Assembly (NCBI RefSeq): GCF_988242995.1
Contig: NZ_OZ547043.1
Strand: one strand, 5' to 3'
Length of the DNA: 64,000 bases
This document shows positions 9,066 to 63,155 of this stretch, one piece after another (the first letter of the stretch is position 1; each line of letters starts with the position of its first letter). A program made the translations under genes and the position numbers. The notes beneath the pieces are model-generated. The model was not told where the DNA came from, did no database searches, and saw only the letters and a list, made by a program, of their open reading frames with translations.

Positions 9066-9083
9066 TAATGCCGATCAGTTAAG
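9066..9083. repeat. IS4 left terminal inverted repeat
   Basis: taatgccgatcagttaag; reverse complement of right end with 2 mismatches. Confidence 0.85.
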
Positions 9084-9149
9084 GATCAGTTGACCGATCC
9101 AGTGGCTGTGTAAGAATCCGGAAACGCTCACTTGTTTCCGGATTTTTTT

Positions 9150-10478
9150 ATGCACATTGGACAGGCTCTTGATCTGGTATCCCGTTACGATTCTCTGCGT
9201 AACCCACTGACTTCTCTGGGGGATTACCTCGACCCCGAACTCATCTCTCGTTGCCTTGCCGAATCAGGTACTGTAACGCTACGCAAGCGCCGTCTTCCCC
9301 TCGAAATGATGGTCTGGTGTATTGTTGGCATGGCGCTTGAGCGTAAAGAACCTCTTCACCAGATTGTGAATCGCCTGGACATCATGCTGCCGGGCAATCG
9401 CCCCTTCGTTGCCCCCAGTGCCGTTATTCAGGCCCGCCAGCGCCTGGGAAGTGAGGCTGTCCGCCGCGTGTTCACGAAAACAGCGCAGCTCTGGCATAAC
9501 GCCACGCCGCATCCGCACTGGTGCGGCCTGACCCTGCTGGCCATCGATGGTGTGTTCTGGCGCACACCGGATACACCAGAGAACGATGCAGCCTTCCCCC
9601 GCCAGACACATGCCGGGAACCCGGCGCTCTACCCGCAGGTCAAAATGGTCTGCCAGATGGAACTGACCAGCCATCTGCTGACGGCTGCAGCCTTCGGCAC
9701 GATGAAGAACAGCGAAAATGAGCTTGCTGAGCAACTTATAGAACAAACCGGCGATAACACTCTGACGTTAATGGATAAAGGTTATTACTCACTGGGACTG
9801 TTAAATGCCTGGAGCCTGGCGGGAGAACACCGCCACTGGATGATACCTCTCAGAAAGGGAGCGCAATATGAAGAGATCAGAAAACTGGGTAAAGGCGATC
9901 ATCTGGTGAAGCTGAAAACCAGCCCGCAGGCACGAAAAAAGTGGCCGGGACTGGGAAATGAAGTGACTGCCCGCCTGCTGACCGTGACGCGCAAAGGAAA
10001 AGTCTGCCATCTGCTGACGTCGATGACGGACGCCATGCGCTTCCCCGGAGGAGAAATGGGGGATCTGTACAGTCATCGCTGGGAAATCGAACTGGGATAC
10101 AGGGAGATAAAACAGACGATGCAACGGAGCAGGCTGACGCTGAGAAGTAAAAAGCCGGAGCTTGTGGAGCAAGAGCTGTGGGGTGTCTTACTGGCTTATA
10201 ATCTGGTGAGATATCAGATGATTAAAATGGCGGAACATCTGAAAGGTTACTGGCCGAATCAACTGAGTTTCTCAGAATCATGCGGAATGGTGATGAGAAT
10301 GCTGATGACATTGCAGGGCGCTTCACCGGGACGTATACCGGAGCTGATGCGCGATCTTGCAAGTATGGGACAACTTGTGAAATTACCGACAAGAAGGGAA
10401 AGGGCCTTCCCGAGAGTGGTAAAGGAGAGGCCCTGGAAATACCCCACAGCCCCGAAAAAGAGCCAGTCAGTTGCTTAA
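9150..10478 (+). CDS. insG: IS4 transposase (InsG-like, DDE family)
   Basis: 442 aa from ATG at 9150 (track ORF starts 6 codons earlier at an alternative TTG); translation matches IS4 transposase; stop lies inside right IR. Confidence 0.93.
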
Positions 10479-10491
10479 CTGACTGGCATTA
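10474..10491. repeat. IS4 right terminal inverted repeat
   Basis: cttaactgactggcatta. Confidence 0.85.
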
Positions 10492-22813: not shown

Positions 22814-23887
22814 TTAGAACTGGTAAACGATACCCACAGCTACGGTGTCGTCAGAACCTACGCCCAGTTTGTTGTCAGAATCGATCTGGTTGATGATGTA
22901 GTCAACATAGGTGGACATGTTTTTGTTGAAGTAGTAGGTTGCGCCCACTTCAAAGTAGTTCACCAGATCAACATCACCGATACCTTCTACGTCTTTCGCT
23001 TTAGATTTGGTGTAAGCGATGGACGGACGCAGACCGAAATCGAACTGGTATTGCGCAACTAACAGAACGTCTTGCGTTTTGTTGGCGAAGCCGCCTTCAA
23101 TTGGCGTAGCGTTACGGGTTTCACCGTAGTTCGCTGCCAGGTAGATGTTGTTCGCGTCATACTTCAGACCAGTTGCCCACTGTTCAGCTTTTTTACCCTG
23201 ACCGCGGAATTCGGCTTCCTGGGCGTCGGTACGGTCTGCTGCACCGTAAGCACCTACGATACCAAAGCCTTCGAATTCGTAGCTGATAGAGCCACCGACG
23301 CCGTCGCCGTTGGAACGCTCAGGAATACCAGCACGTTCGTTTTTGCCCAGGTACTGAACGGCAAAGTTCAGGCCGTCAACCAGACCGAAGAAGTTGGAGT
23401 TACGATAGGTAGCAACGCCGCCTACACGACCAACGAAGAAGTCATCGCTGTATGCCGTGTCACCGCCAAACTCAGGCAGCATATCGGTGTAACCCAGTGC
23501 GTCGTAAACCACACCGTAGTTACGACCGTAGTCGATAGAACCCGCATCAGCGAATTTCAGACCTGCGAATGCCAGACGAGTTTTGTTACCTTTCTGGGCA
23601 TCAGCGCCTTCAGAGTTGTTACCCTGGAAGTTATATTCCCACTGACCGTAGCCGGTCAGATCGGAATTGATTTGTGTTTCCCCTTTAAAACCAAGACGGG
23701 CATAAGTTTTGTCGCCGTTTCCGCCGTAACTGTTTACACCATTGTCTTTAGAAAAATAATGCAGACCGACAGCTTTACCGTACAGATCTACTTTGTTGCC
23801 ATCTTTGTTATAGATTTCTGCAGCGTTTGCAGTACCTGCTACTAACAGAGCAGGGACGATCACTGCCAGAATATTGCGCTTCATCAT
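22814..23887 (-). CDS. ompF: Outer membrane porin OmpF (loop-variant allele)
   Basis: 357 aa; signal peptide [23 protein letters not shown]-terminal ...VAVGIVYQF; barrel core matches OmpF, loop segments differ from K-12 as recalled. Confidence 0.95.
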
Positions 23888-33849: not shown

Positions 33850-34417
33850 GGGCATTACCTCGCAGAGACAGAAGATCGGGAACCTGAACATCGCGGCGGT
33901 GCAGCGCCTGCCAGAAAGTTTCCAGCGCGGTATCAAGACGGGTTTGCAGATTTGGCGTGAACTGCGGCTTGTGGTGGTAATCAATCACCTGTGAGTCATC
34001 GGCAAACACGCCGTGCAGGATCTCCTGGGCTTTCAGCGCACTTAAAACTGGTTTAAGGGCGTAATCGACCGCCAGCAGATGAGCCACCGTGCCGCCCGTC
34101 GCCAGTGGCAGTACCACTTTGCCTTGCAAAGCGCGTTCTGGCAGCAGGTCGAGCAGGGTTTTCAGCGCGCCGGAATAGGCGGCTTTATACACAGGTGTAG
34201 CGATTATCAGTCCATCGGCCTGTTGCAGTTGTTCGGTGAAGGTCTTGAGTGCCGGACTATCGAAACGAGCATAAAGCAGATCTTCCGGGGCAAAGTTTTG
34301 CAGATTCCAGTGATAAACCTCTACATCCAGGCCATTCAGTTTTTCCCGCGCATATTCCAGCAAGGAGCTGGAGCGAGAAGGAAAGCGAGGACTACCCGCC
34401 AGGGTGATGACACGCAT
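33842..34417 (-). CDS. ssuE: NADPH-dependent FMN reductase SsuE
   Basis: 191 aa; first gene of ssuEADCB; overlaps ssuA start by 8 bp. Confidence 0.94.
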   Translation of the reverse strand: MRVITLAGSPRFPSRSSSLLEYAREKLNGLDVEVYHWNLQNFAPEDLLYARFDSPALKTFTEQLQQADGLIIATPVYKAAYSGALKTLLDLLPERALQGKVVLPLATGGTVAHLLAVDYALKPVLSALKAQEILHGVFADDSQVIDYHHKPQFTPNLQTRLDTALETFWQALHRRDVQVPDLLSLRGNAHA

Positions 34418-34553
34418 ACTCTCTCCTTATAACCAATTGTTCTTTTTTTGTTAACATTGATAGCAATTCGGTCAGTCTGACAGAGGTGGCCCGCGAGTCG
34501 AAATGATTTATCTGAGGAAGAAAAGCCAAAAAAAGCATAAAAAAAGCGCAATA

Positions 34554-34569
34554 AGAAAACGTTTGCTAT
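34554..34569. promoter_or_regulatory. Candidate PurR box in pyrD upstream region
   Basis: agaaAAACGTTTgcta contains the central AAACGTTT core of the PurR operator consensus; about 85 bp upstream of pyrD ATG. Confidence 0.4.
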
Positions 34570-34653
34570 TTATTGCCACAGGTCAATTCCCTTTTGGTCC
34601 GAACTCGCACATAATACGCCCCCGGTTTGCACACCGGGAATCCAGGAGAGTTC

Positions 34654-43144: not shown

Positions 43145-44785
43145 ATGGAATCTAATAATGGGGAAGCCAAAATCCAGAAAGTGAAGAACTGGTCTCCCGT
43201 GTGGATATTTCCTATCGTCACGGCGCTCATTGGGGCCTGGGTTCTTTTTTATCATTACAGCCATCAGGGGCCGGAAGTGACCCTGATCACCGCGAATGCG
43301 GAAGGAATAGAAGGTGGTAAAACCACCATTAAAAGCCGTAGCGTTGACGTCGGCGTGGTTGAAAGCGCCACACTGGCTGATGATTTGACGCACGTTGAAA
43401 TCAAAGCGCGGCTGAATTCCGGTATGGAAAAATTGCTGCATAAAGATACCGTCTTTTGGGTGGTTAAACCGCAGATTGGTCGAGAAGGGATTAGCGGCCT
43501 GGGAACGCTGCTGTCTGGTGTTTATATCGAACTGCAGCCAGGCGCGAAAGGCAGCAAAATGGATAAATACGATTTGCTGGACTCACCACCGTTGGCCCCG
43601 CCTGATGCGAAAGGTATCCGTGTGATTCTCGATAGCAAAAAAGCCGGGCAGCTCTCGCCAGGAGATCCCGTGCTGTTCCGTGGCTATCGGGTAGGTTCGG
43701 TTGAAACCAGCACCTTCGATACGCAAAAACGCAATATCAGCTATCAACTGTTCATCAATGCACCTTATGACCGACTGGTGACCAGCAATGTTCGCTTCTG
43801 GAAAGATAGTGGCATTGCGGTTGATCTGACGTCAGCGGGGATGCGTGTGGAGATGGGCTCATTGACAACGCTGCTTAGTGGCGGTGTCAGCTTTGATGTG
43901 CCGGAAGGTCTGGATTTAGGGCAGCCAGTGGCACCGAAAACAGCTTTCGTTTTGTATGATGATCAGAAGAGCATTCAGGATTCGTTGTACACCGATCACA
44001 TTGATTATCTGATGTTCTTTAAAGATTCGGTACGCGGTCTGCAACCGGGAGCTCCGGTAGAATTCCGGGGTATTCGCCTGGGTACCGTAAGCAAAGTGCC
44101 ATTCTTTGCGCCGAATATGCGTCAGACATTTAACGATGATTACCGTATTCCGGTACTGATTCGTATCGAGCCAGAGCGGCTGAAAATGCAGCTTGGCGAA
44201 AATGCGGATGTTGTTGAGCACCTTGGCGAATTGTTGAAACGTGGTTTACGCGGATCGCTGAAAACCGGAAACCTGGTCACTGGTGCACTGTATGTTGATC
44301 TCGATTTCTATCCAAATACGCCTGCAATAACCGGTATTCGTGAATTTAATGGTTATCAGATTATCCCGACCGTTAGCGGCGGTCTGGCGCAAATCCAGCA
44401 ACGACTGATGGAAGCGTTGGATAAGATCAACAAACTGCCATTGAATCCGATGATTGAACAGGCAACCAGTACGCTTTCTGAAAGTCAGCGCACAATGAAA
44501 AACCTGCAAACGACGCTGGATAGCATGAACAAGATCCTCGCCAGCCAGTCGATGCAGCAGTTACCGACGGATATGCAGTCAACGTTGCGTGAATTGAATC
44601 GCAGTATGCAGGGCTTCCAGCCTGGCTCCGCAGCCTACAACAAGATGGTGGCGGATATGCAGCGACTTGATCAGGTGTTGCGAGAACTGCAACCGGTGCT
44701 GAAAACGCTCAACGAGAAGAGTAACGCGCTGGTATTTGAAGCGAAGGACAAAAAAGATCCAGAGCCGAAGAGGGCGAAACAATGA
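43145..44785 (+). CDS. pqiB: MCE-domain intermembrane transport protein PqiB
   Basis: 546 aa from MESNNGEAKIQKVKNWSPVWIF; N-terminal TM anchor, three MCE repeats, C-terminal helical region. Confidence 0.94.
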   Translation: MESNNGEAKIQKVKNWSPVWIFPIVTALIGAWVLFYHYSHQGPEVTLITANAEGIEGGKTTIKSRSVDVGVVESATLADDLTHVEIKARLNSGMEKLLHKDTVFWVVKPQIGREGISGLGTLLSGVYIELQPGAKGSKMDKYDLLDSPPLAPPDAKGIRVILDSKKAGQLSPGDPVLFRGYRVGSVETSTFDTQKRNISYQLFINAPYDRLVTSNVRFWKDSGIAVDLTSAGMRVEMGSLTTLLSGGVSFDVPEGLDLGQPVAPKTAFVLYDDQKSIQDSLYTDHIDYLMFFKDSVRGLQPGAPVEFRGIRLGTVSKVPFFAPNMRQTFNDDYRIPVLIRIEPERLKMQLGENADVVEHLGELLKRGLRGSLKTGNLVTGALYVDLDFYPNTPAITGIREFNGYQIIPTVSGGLAQIQQRLMEALDKINKLPLNPMIEQATSTLSESQRTMKNLQTTLDSMNKILASQSMQQLPTDMQSTLRELNRSMQGFQPGSAAYNKMVADMQRLDQVLRELQPVLKTLNEKSNALVFEAKDKKDPEPKRAKQ

Positions 44786-45345
44786 AAAAGTGGCTAGTGA
44801 CGATTGCAGCACTGTGGCTGGCCGGATGCAGCTCCGGCGAAATTAATAAAAACTATTACCAGTTACCTGTGGTGCAGAGCGGTACACAAAGTACCGCCAG
44901 CCAGGGTAATCGCCTGTTATGGGTAGAGCAGGTCACTGTTCCTGACTATCTGGCGGGAAATGGTGTGGTTTATCAAACCAGTGATGTGAAGTATGTGATT
45001 GCCAACAACAACTTGTGGGCCAGCCCATTGGATCAACAGTTGCGCAACACCCTGGTTGCCAACCTGAGCACGCAACTGCCCGGCTGGGTGGTTGCCTCCC
45101 AGCCTCTGGGAAGCGCCCAGGACACGCTCAATGTTACCGTAACGGAGTTTAACGGTCGCTATGATGGCAAGGTCATTGTCAGTGGGGAGTGGCTGTTGAA
45201 CCACCAGGGACAACTGATCAAACGTCCGTTCCGTCTGGAAGGGGTGCAAACTCAGGATGGTTACGATGAAATGGTTAAAGTGCTGGCCAGTGTCTGGAGT
45301 CAGGAAGCCGCTTCTATTGCGCAAGAGATAAAGCGTCTACCTTAA
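44782..45345 (+). CDS. pqiC: Lipoprotein PqiC (YmbA)
   Basis: 187 aa; lipobox LAGCSS; overlaps pqiB stop. Confidence 0.92.
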   Translation: MKKWLVTIAALWLAGCSSGEINKNYYQLPVVQSGTQSTASQGNRLLWVEQVTVPDYLAGNGVVYQTSDVKYVIANNNLWASPLDQQLRNTLVANLSTQLPGWVVASQPLGSAQDTLNVTVTEFNGRYDGKVIVSGEWLLNHQGQLIKRPFRLEGVQTQDGYDEMVKVLASVWSQEAASIAQEIKRLP

Positions 45346-45366
45346 TTATAAAGATTTGTAAATATA

Positions 45367-45405
45367 ACCGCCTCCGGTATGTTGCCTGAGGCGGTTTTTT
45401 TGTTT
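45367..45405 (+). terminator. Rho-independent terminator after pqiC
   Basis: accgcctc...gaggcggt hairpin followed by T8. Confidence 0.8.
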
Positions 45406-45600
45406 CTAAGGTGCGGAAAAAGTTGTTCCTCTTCACATTTTTTGTACAACTGACATGCCCGTGTAGCTCACAAATATGACAGTGGCGTGAATTTTGCGCA
45501 TTGACGGCAGTTATGATTCGCGGTATTGCTTAACTGTGATTGCACATTTAGTAATCACTGTTTTCTTTTCCACCAGAAACCAGTATGAGGGAAACGAGGC

Positions 45601-45768
45601 ATGAAGAGACAAAAACGAGATCGCCTGGAACGGGCACATCAACGTGGTTATCAGGCCGGCATCGCCGGACGCTCAAAAGAAATGTGTCCCTATCAGACGC
45701 TGAATCAAAGGTCACAATGGCTGGGAGGCTGGCGAGAAGCCATGGCGGACAGGGTAGTAATGGCCTGA
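45601..45768 (+). CDS. rmf: Ribosome modulation factor RMF
   Basis: 55 aa: MKRQKRDRLERAHQRGYQAGIAGRSKEMCPYQTLNQRSQWLGGWREAMADRVVMA; below the 60-aa cutoff of the ORF track; the track's 45585..45782 ORF is a different frame. Confidence 0.95.
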   Translation: MKRQKRDRLERAHQRGYQAGIAGRSKEMCPYQTLNQRSQWLGGWREAMADRVVMA

Positions 45769-45780
45769 TTCTGTCTCTTT

Positions 45781-45817
45781 AAAAAGAAACCTCCGCATTG
45801 CGGAGGTTTCGCCTTTT
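45781..45817. terminator. Bidirectional intrinsic terminator shared by rmf and fabA
   Basis: aaacctccgc-att-gcggaggttt hairpin flanked by A-run and T-run. Confidence 0.85.
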
Positions 45818-45837
45818 GATACTATGTCTGATTATAA

Positions 45838-46356
45838 TCAGAAGGCAGACGTATCCTGGAACAGACCGACTTTCAGGTCGCTGGCGGTATAGATCAAACG
45901 ACCATCAACCAGCACTTCGCCATCCGCCAGGCCCATAATCAGACGACGGTTAACAATGCGTTTAAAGTGAATACGGTAGGTCACTTTTTTCGCTGTCGGC
46001 AGTACCTGACCAGTGAATTTCACTTCGCCAACGCCCAGCGCGCGGCCTTTACCTTCGCCGCCCAGCCAGCCGAGGTAGAACCCTACCAGCTGCCACATTG
46101 CGTCCAGGCCCAGGCATCCCGGCATAACCGGATCGCCAATAAAGTGGCATCCGAAGAACCACAGATCCGGATTGATATCCAGTTCTGCTTCAACATACCC
46201 TTTGTCGAAGTTACCACCCGTTTCGGTCATTTTGACCACACGGTCCATCATCAGCATGTTCGGTGCTGGCAATTGCGGGCCTTTAGCGCCAAACAGTTCA
46301 CCGCGACCAGAGGCAAGAAGGTCTTCTTTTGTATAGGATTCGCGTTTATCTACCAT
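45838..46356 (-). CDS. fabA: 3-hydroxydecanoyl-ACP dehydratase/isomerase FabA
   Basis: 172 aa from [14 protein letters not shown]; hotdog fold with active-site region [14 protein letters not shown]; track ORF over-extended upstream. Confidence 0.96.
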
Positions 46357-46394
46357 GTTCTCTGTAAGCCTTATTTTATTGAAGCACGCAGGAT

Positions 46395-46431
46395 AGCTAA
46401 CACGTGTACGCTGAACAAGTCCGATCAGTTC
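46395..46431 (-). promoter_or_regulatory. fabA promoter operators: FabR palindrome and FadR site
   Basis: Minus strand reads AACTGATCGGACTTGTTC (FadR-type site) then AGCGTACACGTGTTAGCT (FabR palindrome) 40-75 bp upstream of fabA ATG; overlaps 3' end of ycbZ. Confidence 0.6.
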
Positions 46432-48185
46432 GGAATAAACCAGTTCAGCCAACGTAATGGCCATGGAAAACGGTGACGTCCTTCCTGTTGCGATGCTTGC
46501 GCGATACGTTCCTGGATGGTTTGCATCAGCGTCGTTTGGCCTTCGCCATCCCACACCAGATTTAATAATAACGGCAGTGCGTCAGTCACATCGTCTACTG
46601 CCCAGATGGTGAATTTGCCTTCCTCTACCGCTTTCAACAGTTCACTGGGAAGACTTAAATGGCGAACGTTAGCAGTGGGGATAATGACACCTTGTTTCCC
46701 GGTTAACTCACGTTGCTGGCAAATAGCAAAGAAGCCTTCGATTTTCTCATTTAAACCACCGACCGGCTGGGCACGACCGAACTGATCGACTGAACCTGTG
46801 ATAGCGATACTCTGATTCACCGGCACATCGGCGAGGGCGCTTATCAGGGCGCAGAGTTCAGCCATCGAGGCACTATCGCCATCCACTTCACTGTATGACT
46901 GCTCAAATGTCAGCGATGCTGAGAAGGGGATCTGTTGCTCAAGCTGTAGTTCCGACATCAGGAACGCCTGCATGATCATCATCCCTTTCGCATGGATATT
47001 GCCGCCAAGCTCCGCTTTGCGTTCGATGTCGGTGAACTCACCATCGCCAATATGCACAACGCAGCTAATGCGAGAAGGTTCGCCAAAAGCGCGTGGATGA
47101 CCCGGAAATTCAATGACCGAAAGGGCGTTAATTTGCCCGATGCGTTCGCCTTCGGTTTCAATCAGGATTTGCTCCTGAAGAATCTCATCCTGCATGCGTT
47201 CAGCGAGGAAACCTTCGCGCCATTCACGCTGCTGTAGCATTAAGTTTAGCTGCTCGCCGGAGAAGGTGTCGCCATCGCACAGGGAGGCGACCTCTTTACA
47301 CTGGCGGAGGATCCACTGCGGGCTAAGCGGAAGTGTTTCTTGTTCACCGGTGTAGCGGGCTGCTTCGCGGATAAGTACCGGCCAGGCATCCGCTCCCGGT
47401 GCAGGTAAGTGATTATGTCTGGCGGTCAATGTTACCCAGCGACACCACTGGCTTACTGACTCCGCATCGACAATCTGCAGAGTATCTTCAAATTCGCTAT
47501 AAATAGCCTGCTCTGAAAGCTCTGGCTCCATCTCCTGGAAATCAGCCAATGATTCGCGTTCGCCTACCAGAATGACTTTCAGCTTCAATGGCATCGAAGG
47601 CACAGAGACGGGGAGAGGGCGCGACTCATCAAACGCAACCCAGTCAAAACGCTCGCGGTTAACGATATTTTTCAGCCGCATCCACAGCAGAGGTTGCGCC
47701 AGCAGTGTACGCAAAGAGATGATGAGAATACCGCCATTTGCCTGATGCACCAGACCTGGCTGCAGGGTAATGTCGCCATTAAACTGGCGCAGGCAGCCAA
47801 AGAGTTGTTCCGCTTCTACCCAGTCGGCAGCGACAACTTGCGTTAAAGTCGCAAAATTATCATCTGCACTCACTGCGTTACGTAAGCGGATGGTGTGCCC
47901 GGAAACCTCATAGTGACCGCCCACCAGTTGGCCTGCATCGCTTTGTAGCGCACGCGCGGCATCGGCAATAAGATTCAGATACTCAGACTCTTCCGGGGCC
48001 TTCGCCAGCATAAAAGAGGAGGATGCTCGCGTATGCAGCAACTGCTCCAGCGCAAATTGCAGTCGCGGTTGAGTATCACTGAATAAAGGATCGTTTTCGT
48101 CAATCAAATGTGGCTGAGCAAATATTTCCTGATAGCTATCGGTATCAGGAACCAGGTCACGCCATGCAAGTTTCGTAATGGTCAA
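46425..48185 (-). CDS. ycbZ: Lon-like ATP-independent protease homolog YcbZ
   Basis: 586 aa; C-terminal Lon protease-type Ser-Lys domain; N-terminal region lacks canonical AAA+ Walker motifs. Confidence 0.9.
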
Positions 48186-48370
48186 AGTTGATGTTTTTTA
48201 GTCTGTTGTCAAAGCCGCGATTATACCGTAACCGGCACTGCAGCACACGTAGAAAGCACCGACAATACTCCTGGCATGGGCGTTAAAGCTCACAGGATGG
48301 AGATTCTTTTCTTCACTGGCCCAAAAAGCTGATATTCTGTAAAGAGTTACACGGTAACATTGAGATCGCT

Positions 48371-48823
48371 ATGAAATATCAACAACTTGAAAATCTTGAA
48401 AGCGGTTGGAAATGGAAGTATCTGGTGAAGAAGCATCGCGAAGGGGAGTTAATCACCCGTTACATAGAAGCCAGTGCCGCCCAGGAAGCCGTCGATGTGT
48501 TGCTCTCGCTGGAAAATGAACCCGTGCTGGTAAATGGCTGGATTGACAAGCATATGAATCCGGAACTGGTCAATCGCATGAAGCAAACCATTCGGGCCAG
48601 ACGGAAGCGCCATTTTAATGCGGAACACCAGCATACGCGCAAAAAATCGATCGATCTGGAATTTATTGTCTGGCAACGTCTGGCTGGTCTTGCGCAGCGT
48701 CGCGGTAAAACGCTTTCTGAAACGATTGTTCAGCTGATTGAAGATGCGGAAAACAAAGAGAAATACGCGAATAAAATGTCTTCTTTGAAGCAGGATCTGC
48801 AGGCATTGCTGGGTAAGGAATAA
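48371..48823 (+). CDS. matP: Macrodomain Ter organiser MatP
   Basis: 150 aa; begins [26 protein letters not shown]. Confidence 0.94.
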
Positions 48824-48855
48824 CTGACGAAAGTCAGTTCAATTTTCTAAAGACG

Positions 48856-48886
48856 AAAAAAAACCCCGCAGCAGCGGGGTTTTTTA
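48856..48886. terminator. Bidirectional intrinsic terminator between matP and ompA
   Basis: A8-ccccgc-agca-gcgggg-T6. Confidence 0.88.
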
Positions 48887-48898
48887 CCAGACGAGAAC

Positions 48899-49951
48899 TT
48901 AAGCCTGCGGCTGAGTTACAACGTCTTTGATGCCTTTAACTTCGATCTCTACGCGACGATCCGGAGCCAGGCAGTCGATCAGTGCAGCACGCTGTTTCAC
49001 GTTGTCACAGGTGTTGCCAGTAACCGGGTTGGATTCGCCCATACCACGTGCGGAGATCTTGTCTGCCGGGATACCTTTAGAGATCAGGTAATCAACAACA
49101 GACTGAGCACGGCGCTCGGACAGACCCTGGTTGTAAGCGTCAGAACCGATGCGGTCAGTGTAACCCAGAACAACTACGGAACCGTCTTTCGGATCCAGGT
49201 TGCTCAGCTGGCTGTACAGCTGATCCAGAGCAGCCTGACCTTCCGGTTTCAGGGTTGCTTTGTTGAAGGTGAACAGAACGTCAGACTTCAGAGTGAAGTG
49301 CTTGGTCTGTACTTCCGGTGCCGGAGCTGGAGCCGGAGCAACTACTGGAGCTGCTTCGCCCTGACCGAAACGGTAGGAAACACCCAAGCTCAGCATGCCG
49401 TTGTCCGGACGAGTACCGATGGTGTGTGCGTCACCGATGTTGTTGGTCCACTGGTATTCCAGACGGGTAGCGATTTCAGGAGTGATCGCGTACTCAACAC
49501 CGCCAGCGAAGACCGGAGAAACGCCGGTATCGTGGTCTTTAGTGGATGCGCCACCAGGTACGTTAGACTTGGTGTCTGCACGCCATACCATACCACCCAG
49601 ACGAGTGTAAACGTCCAGATCGTCAGTGATTGGGTAACCCAGTTTAGCGGTCAGCTGAACGCCCTGAGCTTTGTATGCGCCGTTGATGTTGTCGCCTTTG
49701 TACGGCATACGACCTAACCAGTCGTAACCCATTTCAAAGCCAACATACGGGTTAACCTGGTAACCACCAAAAGCACCTGCACCCAGTTGGTTTTCGTGGG
49801 TCGGACCATTGTTGTCGATGAAACCAGTGTCATGGTACTGGGACCAGCCCAGTTTAGCACCAGTGTACCAGGTGTTATCTTTCGGAGCGGCCTGCGCTAC
49901 GGTAGCGAAACCAGCCAGTGCCACTGCAATCGCGATAGCTGTCTTTTTCAT
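48899..49951 (-). CDS. ompA: Outer membrane protein A (loop-variant allele)
   Basis: 350 aa from [21 protein letters not shown]; 8-strand barrel, APAPAPAPE hinge, C-terminal OmpA peptidoglycan-binding domain; loops 1-3 differ from K-12 as recalled. Confidence 0.96.
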
Positions 49952-50084
49952 TTTTTGCGCCTCGTTATCATCCAAAATACGCCATGAATATCTCCAACGA
50001 GATAACACGGTTAAATCCTTCACCGGGGGATCTGCTCAATATTAACTCTACCGATATCTTCGGCTTATGCCGAGCACCCCTGGC
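49952..50084 (-). promoter_or_regulatory. ompA long 5' UTR (sRNA/Hfq target region)
   Basis: About 133-nt leader upstream of ompA ATG corresponds to the known ompA 5' UTR; boundary taken from established knowledge, not measured. Confidence 0.6.
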
Positions 50085-50307
50085 GATGTAAAGTCTACAA
50101 CGTAGTTGAAAACTTACAAGTGTGAACTCCGTCAGGCATATGAAAAAAAAGTCTTGTATAAGGTACGTTTAATCTTTTTTGTCAGCGACAATTTACAGAA
50201 GAAAATCGCGGAAACCGCTTCAGACAAGCCTCTGCAAGGAAAATTAGTCACGACTGAAAGCATTGGCTGGGCGACAAAAAAAGTTCCAGGATTAATCCTA
50301 AATTTAC

Positions 50308-50817
50308 TTAATGATACAAATTAGAGTGAATTTTTAGCCCGGAAAGTTGTCTCGTTGCGTGAGAGGATGCGCTTACCGGACGCATAATAAACCCCATAGC
50401 GTTACCTTCATTTGCCGCATCAACAAGTTCAGCATGCTCTTCTTCAGTCAAATCATCTGCCAACCAACCGATCACCACACTGTAATTGCCCGTGCGTAAA
50501 GCGCGAACCATTGACTCCACGGTGTGGCAAGGGGAGAGCTGGCTAATCTGCATTACTTTCGTTAAGGGTAGCCCAGATGCCTGAACCCATTCCCGACTCA
50601 GTTTTTGTTGCGGTGTTAACCAGAGTTGCCAGCGCGATTGCTGACCGAGTTGCTGTAACAATGGCAACAGTAGAAGTTGCGTCATCATGGGCTGATCTTC
50701 GCGATAGACAACTTCACTGATAAGCCCGGCTGTAGTGTTTTCCGTAGAGACACGCGCAATTTTACTTGCTGCGGATGAGAACGACGAAGAACGATGTGCA
50801 TAGCCTGAAGTGTACAT
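50308..50817 (-). CDS. sulA: SOS cell-division inhibitor SulA
   Basis: 169 aa from [15 protein letters not shown]; LexA box just upstream. Confidence 0.96.
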
Positions 50818-50839
50818 AATCAATCCAGCCCCTGTGAGT

Positions 50840-50859
50840 TACTGTATGGATGTACAGTA
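50840..50859. promoter_or_regulatory. LexA operator (SOS box) of sulA
   Basis: tACTGTatggatgtACAGta = CTGT-N8-ACAG palindrome, 23 bp upstream of sulA ATG. Confidence 0.92.
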
Positions 50860-51035
50860 CATCCAGTGACGACAAAGATCAACCCTATTTTCGGAAAGAG
50901 CCTCGCAAATTTTGTCGTTGGTGACAGGAAAACATAAATTAATCTTGCCCCTTAAGAATAAGTTGCCTATTTTCGTAGTTAACGGATCCGTTAATGTGAA
51001 TCATTCTTTTATGTTATGATTTTAAAAGGAATTTT

Positions 51036-51665
51036 ATGAAAAGCCTCTCCTATAAGCGGATCTATAAATCACAAGAATACCTGGCAACGTTGGGCACAAT
51101 TGAATACCGATCATTGTTTGGCAGTTACAGCCTGACCGTTGACGACACGGTGTTTGCGATGGTTTCTGATGGTGAGTTGTATCTTCGGGCTTGTGAGCAA
51201 AGTGCACAGTACTGTGTAAAACATCCGCCTGTCTGGCTGACATATAAAAAGTGTGGCCGATCCGTTACCCTCAATTACTATCGGGTTGATGAAAGTCTAT
51301 GGCGAAATCAACTGAAGCTGGTGCGTCTGTCGAAATATTCTCTCGATGCAGCGCTGAAAGAGAAAAGCACGCGCAATACCCGGGAAAGACTGAAAGATTT
51401 GCCCAATATGTCTTTTCATCTGGAAGCGATTCTCGGGGAGGTGGGGATTAAGGATGTACGGGCGTTACGTATACTTGGGGCAAAAATGTGTTGGTTGCGA
51501 CTGCGGCAGCAAAACAGTCTGGTGACAGAAAAGATTCTGTTTATGCTTGAAGGGGCCATTATCGGCATTCATGAAGCTGCGCTCCCGGTGGCACGCCGCC
51601 AGGAGCTTGCAGAATGGGCTGACTCTCTTACGCCGAAACAGGAGTTTCCTGCGGAACTTGAGTAA
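51036..51665 (+). CDS. sxy: Competence regulator Sxy/TfoX
   Basis: 209 aa; two-domain TfoX-like protein; 3' end overlaps convergent yccS by 38 bp. Confidence 0.92.
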   Translation: MKSLSYKRIYKSQEYLATLGTIEYRSLFGSYSLTVDDTVFAMVSDGELYLRACEQSAQYCVKHPPVWLTYKKCGRSVTLNYYRVDESLWRNQLKLVRLSKYSLDAALKEKSTRNTRERLKDLPNMSFHLEAILGEVGIKDVRALRILGAKMCWLRLRQQNSLVTEKILFMLEGAIIGIHEAALPVARRQELAEWADSLTPKQEFPAELE

Positions 51666-61523: not shown

Positions 61524-61611
61524 TGGCGGAAGCGCAGAGATTCGAACTCTGGAACCCTTTCGGGTCGCCGGTTTTCAAGACCGGTGCCTTCAACCGCTCG
61601 GCCACACTTCC
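61524..61611 (-). tRNA. serT: tRNA-Ser (anticodon UGA)
   Basis: Minus strand reads GGAAGTGTGGCCGAGCGGTTGAAGGCACCGGTCTTGAAAACCGG...CGCTTCCGCCA: 88 nt, long variable arm, encoded CCA, anticodon loop CUUGAAA. Confidence 0.97.
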
Positions 61612-62036
61612 GGAATGACGCGCACTATAAACATCCCGATGCGGCGTGTAAACCCCTAATTTGTTTGTTTGCCTGAAAAACAGCCAAAAGCGCATTGATA
61701 GCGTGAAATAACAGCAGATTGATCATTTCATCACCATGAATTCCTTCTCTTTTACTCGTTTAGCAACCGGCTAAACATCCCCACCGCCCGGCCAAAGAAA
61801 AATAGGTCCATTTTTATCGCTAAAAGATAAATCCACACAGTTTGTATTGTTTTGTGCAAAAGTTTCACTACGCTTTATTAACAATACTTTCTGGCGACGT
61901 GCGCCAGTGCAGAAGGATGAGCTTTCGTTTTCAGCATCTCACGTGAAGCGATGGTTTGCCTTGCTACAGGGACGTCGCTTGCCGACCATAAGCGCCCGGT
62001 GTCCTGCCGGTGTCGCAAGGAGAAGAGACGTGCGAT

Positions 62037-63155
62037 ATGAATAACGAGGAAACATTTTACCAGGCCATGCGGCGTCAGGGCGTTACCCGGCGCAGCTTTC
62101 TCAAATATTGTAGTCTGGCTGCCACGTCGCTGGGATTAGGCGCGGGAATGGCACCAAAGATTGCCTGGGCGCTGGAGAACAAACCGCGCATTCCGGTGGT
62201 ATGGATCCACGGTCTGGAATGCACCTGCTGTACCGAATCTTTTATCCGCTCCGCTCACCCGCTGGCAAAGGACGTCATCCTTTCCCTGATTTCCCTCGAT
62301 TACGACGATACTTTGATGGCTGCCGCCGGAACCCAGGCGGAAGAAGTCTTTGAAGACATCATCACGCAATACAATGGCAAATATATCCTCGCAGTAGAAG
62401 GTAATCCGCCGCTGGGCGAGCAGGGGATGTTCTGTATCAGCAGCGGTCGACCGTTTATTGAGAAACTCAAACGTGCCGCTGCCGGAGCCAGCGCGATTAT
62501 CGCCTGGGGAACCTGCGCGTCCTGGGGCTGCGTGCAGGCCGCGCGACCCAATCCGACGCAGGCAACGCCTATCGACAAAGTCATCACCGACAAACCTATT
62601 ATCAAAGTACCTGGCTGCCCGCCGATCCCGGATGTGATGAGCGCCATCATTACTTACATGGTGACCTTTGATCGCTTGCCAGATGTCGACAGAATGGGCC
62701 GTCCACTGATGTTTTATGGTCAGCGTATCCACGATAAATGTTATCGCCGCGCTCACTTCGACGCCGGAGAGTTCGTCCAGAGTTGGGATGATGACGCTGC
62801 CCGCAAAGGTTACTGCCTGTACAAAATGGGTTGCAAAGGACCTACCACCTATAACGCCTGTTCCTCCACACGCTGGAATGATGGCGTTTCTTTCCCAATC
62901 CAGTCTGGTCACGGCTGCCTGGGCTGTGCGGAAAATGGTTTCTGGGATCGCGGTTCGTTCTACAGCCGCGTGGTCGATATTCCGCAAATGGGAACTCATT
63001 CCACCGCCGACACCGTCGGTTTAACCGCGCTTGGCGTGGTGGCAGCGGCTGTTGGTGTGCACGCAGTCGCCAGCGCCGTTGACCAGCGCAGACGTCATAA
63101 CCAGCAACCTACAGAAACCGAACATCAGCCAGGCAATGAGGATAAACAGGCATGA
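62037..63155 (+). CDS. hyaA: [NiFe] hydrogenase-1 small subunit HyaA
   Basis: 372 aa from [23 protein letters not shown] (Tat signal); FeS cysteine clusters; C-terminal TM anchor. Confidence 0.96.

Follow-up and report, generated by a model that had tools for sequence, protein, structure and literature searches.

The ompA gene in the window (the whole 64-kb stretch of DNA that was analysed) encodes a porin whose surface loops are not those of E. coli K-12. This raises the question of what kind of allele it is: a defective or freshly mutated gene, a hallmark of extraintestinal lineages as an earlier note had suggested, or a natural variant with its own history, and what it may mean for the phages and other binders that recognise the protein. 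The gene lies between sulA and matP, in the same order as in K-12, and its features are the following:

48899..49951, minus strand: ompA coding sequence, 350 codons plus stop, intact, with the ATG at 49951 and the stop codon ending at 48899
49889..49951, minus strand: signal peptide, codons 1-21, the same as in K-12
49313..49339, minus strand: proline-rich hinge APAPAPAPE, unchanged relative to K-12
48989..49276, minus strand: C-terminal periplasmic OmpA-like (peptidoglycan-binding) domain, PF00691, residues 226-321
49952..50165, minus strand: 5' UTR, Shine-Dalgarno sequence and proximal promoter region, 214 nt, all identical to K-12
48858..48885, minus strand: strong intrinsic terminator hairpin AAAAAACCCCGCTGCTGCGGGGTTTTTT followed by a T tract, downstream of the ompA stop codon

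The automatic list of open reading frames runs the ompA frame on to a GTG at 50023; by homology, however, the true start is the ATG, which is preceded by GAGG. Pfam identifies both OmpA_membrane (PF01389, E 1.9e-80) and OmpA (PF00691, E 8.2e-24), and all the features of the family are present: an eight-stranded barrel, the hinge, the C-terminal domain, and a location at the sulA/matP locus with the K-12 5' UTR. The first upstream mismatch to K-12 occurs 215 nt before the ATG. Because the 214 nt upstream are identical to K-12 and the terminator is in place, there is no hint of a change in expression, and as far as can be judged from the DNA the gene appears intact, normal and normally regulated, with no sign of expression unlike that of K-12. 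A search of positions 48600-50400 against Rfam gave a single hit, a Leu_leader RNA on the terminator, which at 29 bits fell below the gathering threshold of 50 and was treated as chance.

An unusual protein could also be explained by a sequencing or assembly artefact, or by a pseudogene. We found nothing to favour this explanation and regard it as already refuted, with a negligible probability: the frame is intact, the length change relative to K-12 is an in-frame 12 nt, and ompA DNA identical to that of the window is present in two independent public assemblies, L007 and L012 (GCA_019697025.1), of which L012 matches the window at 99.991% over 21 kb.

The protein was aligned to the K-12 reference, MG1655 OmpA from NC_000913. 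The differences fall at five places:

49814..49816, minus strand: loop 1, codon 46 (mature 25), Asp; Asn in K-12 and Pro in the OmpA-long reference
49685..49693, minus strand: loop 2, codons 87-89 (mature 66-68), DNI; SVE in K-12
49610..49612, minus strand: codon 114 (mature 93), Val; Ile in K-12; strand beta-5, near the periplasmic turn
49523..49567, minus strand: loop 3 segment, codons 129-143, 15 residues, with four extra residues compared to K-12
49268..49270, minus strand: codon 228 (mature 203), Thr; Asn in K-12; C-terminal domain

Loop 1 thus reads FIDNNG in the window and FINNNG in K-12 (N46D), while loop 2, which is KGSVENGAYK in K-12, differs by SVE87-89DNI. In loop 3, comparison with the K-12 sequence SNVYG----KNHDTG shows Y132P, four added residues and N139D; in the protein alignment the four residues lacking in K-12 are GAST (49541-49552), which corresponds to an in-frame length difference of 12 nt. 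The earlier note had described loops 1-3 as different from K-12, and every string that it quoted was reproduced by the alignment. It had also described the barrel, hinge and C-terminal domain as conserved. The hinge is indeed identical to that of K-12 OmpA (OmpA-short; PDB 1BXW, 1QJP and 9FZC; pattern (I,alpha) of Liao), as is the signal peptide; however, the barrel strands are the same only apart from I114V in beta-5, and the C-terminal domain only apart from N228T, and since both changes had been overlooked the description was slightly overstated. Mature position 93 is in a transmembrane strand near its periplasmic end, and position 203 is in the C-terminal dimerisation region (Liao 2017, PMC5413513).

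The location of the altered residues was checked using AlphaFold. A prediction from a 10-sequence alignment had a pLDDT of 36 and was unusable; the model used was built from 82 homologues and has a pLDDT of 50-82 in the barrel, with a poor hinge and C-terminal domain. It consists of eight strands, and places D46, DNI87-89 and residues 130-136 within long connectors, while V114 sits 2-3 residues past a short turn. When the model barrel is superposed on 9FZD, 9FZC and 1BXW, the TM-scores are 0.86-0.87 (0.87 for 9FZD), and the published residue maps of OmpA agree with this placement of the loops (PMC5413513, PMC12259851). The model, the superposition and the residue maps concur that the loop differences from K-12 are located in extracellular loops 1-3, as had been proposed. 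In an alignment of 82 Enterobacteriaceae OmpAs, the altered loop positions rank from 2nd to 34th of 350 columns for variability.

The window protein is identical to WP_000750413.1 (strain GMF054), which carries the title 'MULTISPECIES: porin OmpA [Enterobacteriaceae]' in the public protein collection. Its best match among solved structures is 9FZD, 'OmpA-long in complex with nanobody Nb39' (398 bits, with 170 of 174 barrel residues identical), ahead of the OmpA-short structure 9FZC at 368 bits. Approximately 86,000 E. coli OmpAs have been shown to cluster as two isoforms, short and long, distinguished by the length of loop 3 (PMC12259851, Commun Biol 2025); the long isoform corresponds to patterns II and III of Liao 2017 (PMC5413513) and to what Power 2006 named the ompA2 allele. 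The window OmpA has a loop 3 four residues longer than that of K-12, the VPGGAS core, and DNI in loop 2, all of which characterise OmpA-long. With the OmpA-long reference (clinical strain #11, 9FZD) it shares DNI, the length of loop 3, the VPGGAS core, KD, the His in loop 4, and the barrel, and it differs from this reference by P25D in loop 1, I93V in strand beta-5, and A108S and F116T in loop 3. The subtype can therefore be written as D25 / DNI66-68 / V93 / S108...T116 / His in loop 4 / A175-T203-G251, where A175, T203 and G251 (A200, T228 and G276 of the precursor) constitute C-terminal pattern beta of Liao. We conclude that the window OmpA is a natural variant of the OmpA-long/ompA2 isoform, closest to Liao pattern III.

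The exact combination of loops is absent from the rows of Liao's Table 3A, which cover patterns I-VII in 78 isolates; those that come closest are D/DNI/SNVPGGVSTKD/H (isolate 249) and the row of isolate 256 (PMC5413513). The OmpA of E. coli 042 (WP_014639122.1) is only one residue away, having V135 in loop 3 where the window has A135; its C-terminal domain and other loops are the same, and its ompA DNA is 99.1% identical. We note a consequence for typing. According to the summary given by Liao 2017, the forward primer of the ompA2 PCR (Power et al. 2006) lies on the segment of loop 3 that encodes ANVPGGA. At nt 385 of ompA the window has T rather than G and encodes SNVPGGA, and amplification of this allele by the ompA2 PCR is therefore uncertain, a point also raised about the assay by Liao 2017 (PMC5413513). 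The allele is an already catalogued natural variant of a common isoform, and belongs to known biology.

In public assemblies the exact window protein is found on at least 1000 contigs, and the blocks that hold it number at least 971. The frequency of the allele was estimated by searching the 331-nt segment from loop 1 to loop 3 against 5,426 complete RefSeq E. coli genomes, giving the following bands, which are BLAST identity classes and not translated alleles:

100% identity to the window segment: 1/5,426 genomes (GMF054)
at least 99% identity: 5/5,426 genomes (GMF054, N96, N3, 042 and AST215), the same subtype or nearly so
95-99% identity: 1,881/5,426 genomes, other long alleles
90-95% identity: 377/5,426 genomes, probably hybrids
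80-90% identity: 3,163/5,426 genomes, short, K-12-like alleles

On these figures the long class makes up about 35% of complete E. coli genomes, consistent with the 41-43% given in PCR and sequencing reports (via Liao 2017, PMC5413513). The D25/S108/T116 subtype accounts for approximately 0.1% of complete genomes, yet is frequent among draft assemblies.

The differences from K-12 are not spread evenly along the gene, but are concentrated in one block:

49529..49822, minus strand: divergent mosaic block containing loops 1-3, codons 44-141, ompA nt 130-423, approximately 300 bp

This block holds 27 of the 33 nucleotide substitutions relative to K-12 in gap-free codons, as well as the 12-nt length difference. 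Nei-Gojobori distances between the window and K-12 ompA were calculated by segment:

codons 44-141: dS 0.30, dN 0.054; 15.5 synonymous differences at 63 sites
rest of ompA: dS 0.027, dN 0.002; 5 synonymous differences at 189 sites

The clustering of synonymous differences in the block (15.5/63 compared to 5/189; Fisher's exact p = 1e-6) is therefore not due to chance. Although block dS values rest on only 63-67 synonymous sites, the value between the window and K-12 is level with that between E. coli and Salmonella for ompA outside the block (approximately 0.29-0.30). It is clear that the block has a far older history than the rest of ompA, and that the differences are not fresh mutations.

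This result bears on the suggestion that the loops have acquired recent point mutations under positive selection, as a means of escape from phage or immune recognition in the source strain. The positions would suit such an explanation: the changed mature residues 25, 66-68 and 108-116 coincide with the loop regions of phage-resistant K-12 mutants, which Morona et al. reportedly mapped to the loop regions of OmpA in 1984/85, and the changed positions are among the most variable columns in the 82 Enterobacteriaceae OmpAs. However, the block has 15.5 synonymous beside 11.5 non-synonymous differences from K-12, and this dN/dS of 0.18, together with the high synonymous divergence, indicates that these are not recent escape mutations. 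Moreover, at least 971 blocks of the public assemblies hold the identical protein, which is found there on divergent flanks, and the same loops are found in other species. We therefore treat recent escape as already refuted and extremely improbable.

The occurrence of the loops in other species was examined in a scan of one genome per species, covering at least 80 species representatives. Among the matches listed, long-type loops (DNI + x-N-V/T-P-G-G-x-S-x-K-D) are present in E. albertii, Leclercia, Citrobacter amalonaticus, C. freundii, Salmonella arizonae and diarizonae, and two divergent lineages labelled E. coli; E. fergusonii, E. marmotae and short-allele E. coli are not among the matches listed. 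The synonymous distances within the block (again from 63-67 sites) are:

window and SCPM-O-B-8794: 0.03
window and E. albertii: 0.06
window and strain E69: 0.095
window and C. amalonaticus: 0.17
K-12 and every Escherichia long block compared: 0.25-0.35
K-12 and Salmonella, Citrobacter or Yokenella: 0.40-0.52

The similarity extends to Salmonella enterica OmpA (among others in P0013 and in the type strains of arizonae and diarizonae), which has the long S-N-x-P-G-G-x-S-T/Y-K loop 3, DNI and V93, as in the window. The block contains only three non-synonymous differences between the two, whereas elsewhere there are 19 amino-acid differences and a dS of approximately 0.29-0.30. Because the long block is common to E. 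albertii, cryptic Escherichia lineages, Citrobacter and Salmonella, it is K-12 that is the odd one out, and the long block is likely to be the resident form of the genus, with the short block of K-12 as the outlier. The earlier note called loop 3 four residues longer; the difference of four residues stands, but its polarity is probably reversed, in that the long form is common to the relatives and K-12 is better described as four residues shorter. No donor of the short block was found among the 80 species representatives listed.

These distances lead us to a broader proposal, to which we would give slightly less than an even chance: the OmpA isoforms of E. coli may represent an ancient balanced polymorphism of a block of approximately 300 bp, possibly trans-species or introgressed. 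If this were true, the textbook surface of K-12 OmpA would be foreign or a relict, the native form in Escherichia, Citrobacter and Salmonella would be the long one, and phages, presumably through frequency-dependent selection, would have kept the short block in approximately 58% of E. coli. That the loops of ompA evolve as a mosaic driven by recombination has been reported before, in qualitative terms (bioRxiv 10.1101/2021.09.21.461324; later AEM 2022). Our results are only mildly new, in providing a figure for the divergence of the block (equal to the E. coli-Salmonella dS) and in identifying K-12 as the atypical carrier.

The background on which the allele is found was analysed by comparing 7 kb, consisting of ompA and its flanks, with reference strains:

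K-12: 98.35% identity to the window
O157:H7 FRIK804: 98.39%
SMS-3-5: 98.6%
CU532-9 (O4:H5): 97.8%
042: 98.97%
631: 99.48%

We take these strains to belong to phylogroups A (K-12), E (FRIK804), F (SMS-3-5) and D (042), with CU532-9 presumably in B2. The divergence of 1.65% from K-12, compared to the closer 042 and 631, bears out the view that the strain lies outside the K-12 lineage. So too does OmpF, which had been noted as a variant: the window protein matches that of 042 at every residue, and K-12 OmpF at 93% of residues. Between ssuE and pyrD, neither the window nor 042 has the elf/ycb fimbrial operon. Overall, the window looks nearest to phylogroup D, an assignment based on similarity to reference strains, with the typing marker genes lying outside the window. 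When 14-25 kb pieces of the window are compared with complete RefSeq E. coli genomes, identity nowhere exceeds 99.4%.

The lack of a close complete E. coli genome, together with the 'MULTISPECIES' label, raised the possibility of a Shigella origin. This seems unlikely: the window has H155 where S. flexneri has N155, the tested S. boydii and S. sonnei strains have the short isoform, and there is only one IS element in 64 kb. An open reading frame near the end of the window (62010-63155), considered as a candidate for an integrase or island at tRNA-Ser, proved to be hyaA.

Evidence for recombination at ompA is provided by its closest relatives. Strain 631 and similar genomes match the window at 99.9% identity downstream of the gene (44000-48850), while upstream of ompA strain 631 is approximately 0.75% diverged, and its ompA differs by 15 nt, encoding P25, I93 and ANVPGGASFKD. 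Conversely, seven assemblies with an identical OmpA are 0.5-1.0% different from the window over 21 kb, with the exception of L012, which by its near-identity to the window is of the same lineage. In L007 there is an identical tract of 4.2 kb around ompA (47037-51233), beyond which the sequence is divergent. Since the allele is found on many backgrounds, and since the closest relative by flanking sequence, 631, has another ompA, we conclude that ompA is a recombining mosaic and that the allele alone is no marker of lineage.

It could be argued that E. coli acquired the S108/T116 subtype of the long block from a cryptic clade or another Escherichia species through recombination, so that the subtype would not be an old allele of E. 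coli. The GTDB species representative SCPM-O-B-8794 has the loop SNVPGGVSTKD, and its dS from the window is 0.03 in the block compared to 0.095 in the rest of the gene; in addition, few complete E. coli genomes carry the subtype. However, this contrast corresponds to approximately 2/67 compared to 17/189 synonymous changes, which is statistically not convincing, the direction of transfer cannot be told, and the allele is present on many E. coli backgrounds. We therefore consider such an origin unlikely; it is in any case compatible with our main explanation rather than opposed to it. That explanation, which we regard as very probably correct, is that the window encodes an intact natural variant of OmpA-long, whose old loop 1-3 block has been spread by recombination. 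The block would be an old and independently evolving allele class of approximately 300 bp, which has been moved between E. coli backgrounds by homologous recombination. The eight-stranded barrel, hinge and peptidoglycan-binding domain would function as they do in K-12, and only the exposed tip of loops 1-3 would be altered, this being the surface read by OmpA-dependent phages, colicins, antibodies and nanobodies. The outcome would be a shifted spectrum of sensitivity, together with recognition by binders specific for OmpA-long.

A further possibility, proposed in the earlier note as a resemblance to an allele of extraintestinal lineages, is that the allele is a signature of, or an adaptation to, extraintestinal pathogenic E. 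coli (ExPEC). Two observations are consistent with this. The account of Gophna 2004 given in PMC5413513 traces the first record of long-loop alleles (pattern III) to septicaemic O78 and CFT073, and clinical strain #17, a urine isolate, has the same loop 3 as the window. However, the motif PGGAST occurs in 0/399 ExPEC OmpA sequences of the Nielsen 2020 set, and none of the 25 ExPEC patterns in that study matches the window OmpA. The dominant pattern of ExPEC and NMEC, A1, has K-12 loops (Nielsen 2020), and the ExPEC-enriched pattern (I,delta) of Liao, which is equivalent to A1, likewise has K-12 loops and differs from K-12 only at positions 203 and 251. The window OmpA does not correspond to this ExPEC-enriched allele: its loops are not of the K-12 type, and it has G251, whereas the enriched allele requires T203 together with A251. 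The long isoform makes up approximately 35-43% of all E. coli, of any pathotype and including environmental isolates, and both the Liao and Nielsen groups found the distribution of ompA alleles to follow mainly phylogroup. The link to ExPEC is weak, and the proposed resemblance is not supported: the window allele is no marker of extraintestinal pathogens, and we consider it very unlikely to be a signature or adaptation of ExPEC. More generally, ompA alleles are unsafe as markers of pathotype or lineage, and K-12 is unsafe as the ancestral state.

With the allele identified as a natural OmpA-long variant, its interactions can be considered by analogy with published variants. Eight natural OmpA variants from ECOR strains have been expressed in MG1655 delta-ompA: phages with type-1 Gp38 infect all eight, whereas phages with type-2 Gp38 are restricted to variants 1, 3 and 4, whose loops 2 and 3 have particular forms in common (PMC12032242). 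In that paper, 'variant 7' is given T137 in loop 3. Because T137 fits only a loop of SNVPGG(A/V)ST type, variant 7 probably belongs to the same class as the window OmpA, which by this analogy would be refractory to type-2 phages. The nanobodies Nb01 and Nb39, which make contact with all four loops, each recognise strictly one isoform; clinical strain #17, which has P25, V93 and a window-like loop 3, is positive for Nb39 (78%) and negative for Nb01 (PMC12259851). Phage Sf6 uses the OmpA of Shigella flexneri as a secondary receptor (Porcek & Parent 2015). In loop 4, position 155 is Asn in that protein (N155) and His in the window OmpA (H155); the residues relevant to Sf6, D66, N67 and P111, are all present in the window OmpA. 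These three residues are needed for the efficiency of Sf6 infection, with the affinity of binding hardly altered (bioRxiv 10.1101/509141), and Liao assigns pattern (II,alpha) to one S. flexneri strain.

The view that the loops give the strain a different phage-interaction surface is consistent with these reports, in which natural loop variants alter recognition by phages and nanobodies (PMC12032242, PMC12259851). By the same analogy we expect the window OmpA to have an altered surface for recognition by phages and antibodies and an unchanged core function, and phages that need K-12-type loops 2 and 3 would meet resistance or plate poorly. For work on phages and diagnostics, the allele indicates which isoform is displayed: phages specific for the K-12 loops, and Nb01, are expected to miss the strain, and binders specific for OmpA-long should probably see it. 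The alleles of OmpA also affect surface charge, hydrophobicity and attachment, and residue 203, which is Thr in the window, tracks hydrophobicity and biofilm formation (Liao 2017 and 2022).

No complete RefSeq E. coli genome exceeded about 99.4% identity across any 14–25 kb piece of the window, while the draft assembly GCA_019697025.1 (ABCAGT010000001.1), which encodes the same OmpA, differs from the window by only 2 mismatches in 21 kb. On this sequence comparison, finished genomes represent the lineage of the window poorly.

The features of the window considered here, other than ompA, are as follows.

Features of the window discussed in the text
9066–10491: insertion sequence of the IS4 family, approximately 1.43 kb long, between elyC and cmoM
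9132–10478: transposase ORF of this element, with Pfam matches to Nterm_IS4 and DDE_Tnp_1
22814–23887, minus strand: ompF, encoding a 357-residue porin
61524–61611: tRNA-Ser with anticodon TGA
62010–63155: hyaA, directly after the tRNA-Ser

The earlier note had mentioned a variant OmpF, and this was confirmed: the protein is 93% identical to the 362-residue OmpF of K-12, and the same as that of E. coli 042 (WP_000977905.1). The differences from K-12 are confined mostly to four short clusters, one of which contains a six-residue deletion (TNKFTN).

Related ompA genes occur in two GTDB species representatives labelled as E. coli, SCPM-O-B-8794 and E69, at 301–1350 in each. Outside the divergent loop block (codons 44–141), their synonymous divergence (dS) from E. 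coli is approximately 0.1, equal to the distance of E. albertii, and these strains therefore probably represent cryptic Escherichia lineages. The loop 3 subtype S...ST (SNVPGGVSTKD in SCPM-O-B-8794) is common to this strain, the window and 042.

Features of the K-12 loops are also found in other genera. Among the species representatives listed, the Buttiauxella OmpAs (L080, L081 and L088) carry the K-12 loop 2 motif SVE, and the OmpA of Enterobacter sp. ENT03 has a loop 3 of K-12 length (SNANFRGKEHDTG) and a loop 1 containing FINNDG. Both are distant from K-12 at synonymous sites (for ENT03, block dS = 0.90), which rules out each of them as a donor of the short block, the K-12 version of these codons.

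The ssuE-pyrD junction (34417–34627) lacks the elf/ycb chaperone-usher fimbrial operon, as it does in 042 and the O4:H5 strain CU532-9; in contrast, the operon is present at this junction in O157:H7 FRIK804 and SMS-3-5. There is no inserted island or prophage at the tRNA-Ser, where hyaA comes next, unlike FRIK804, in which a prophage integrase adjoins yccA. The IS4-family element is also found in strain AST215, at another site and with 99.6–99.8% identity to the copy in the window.
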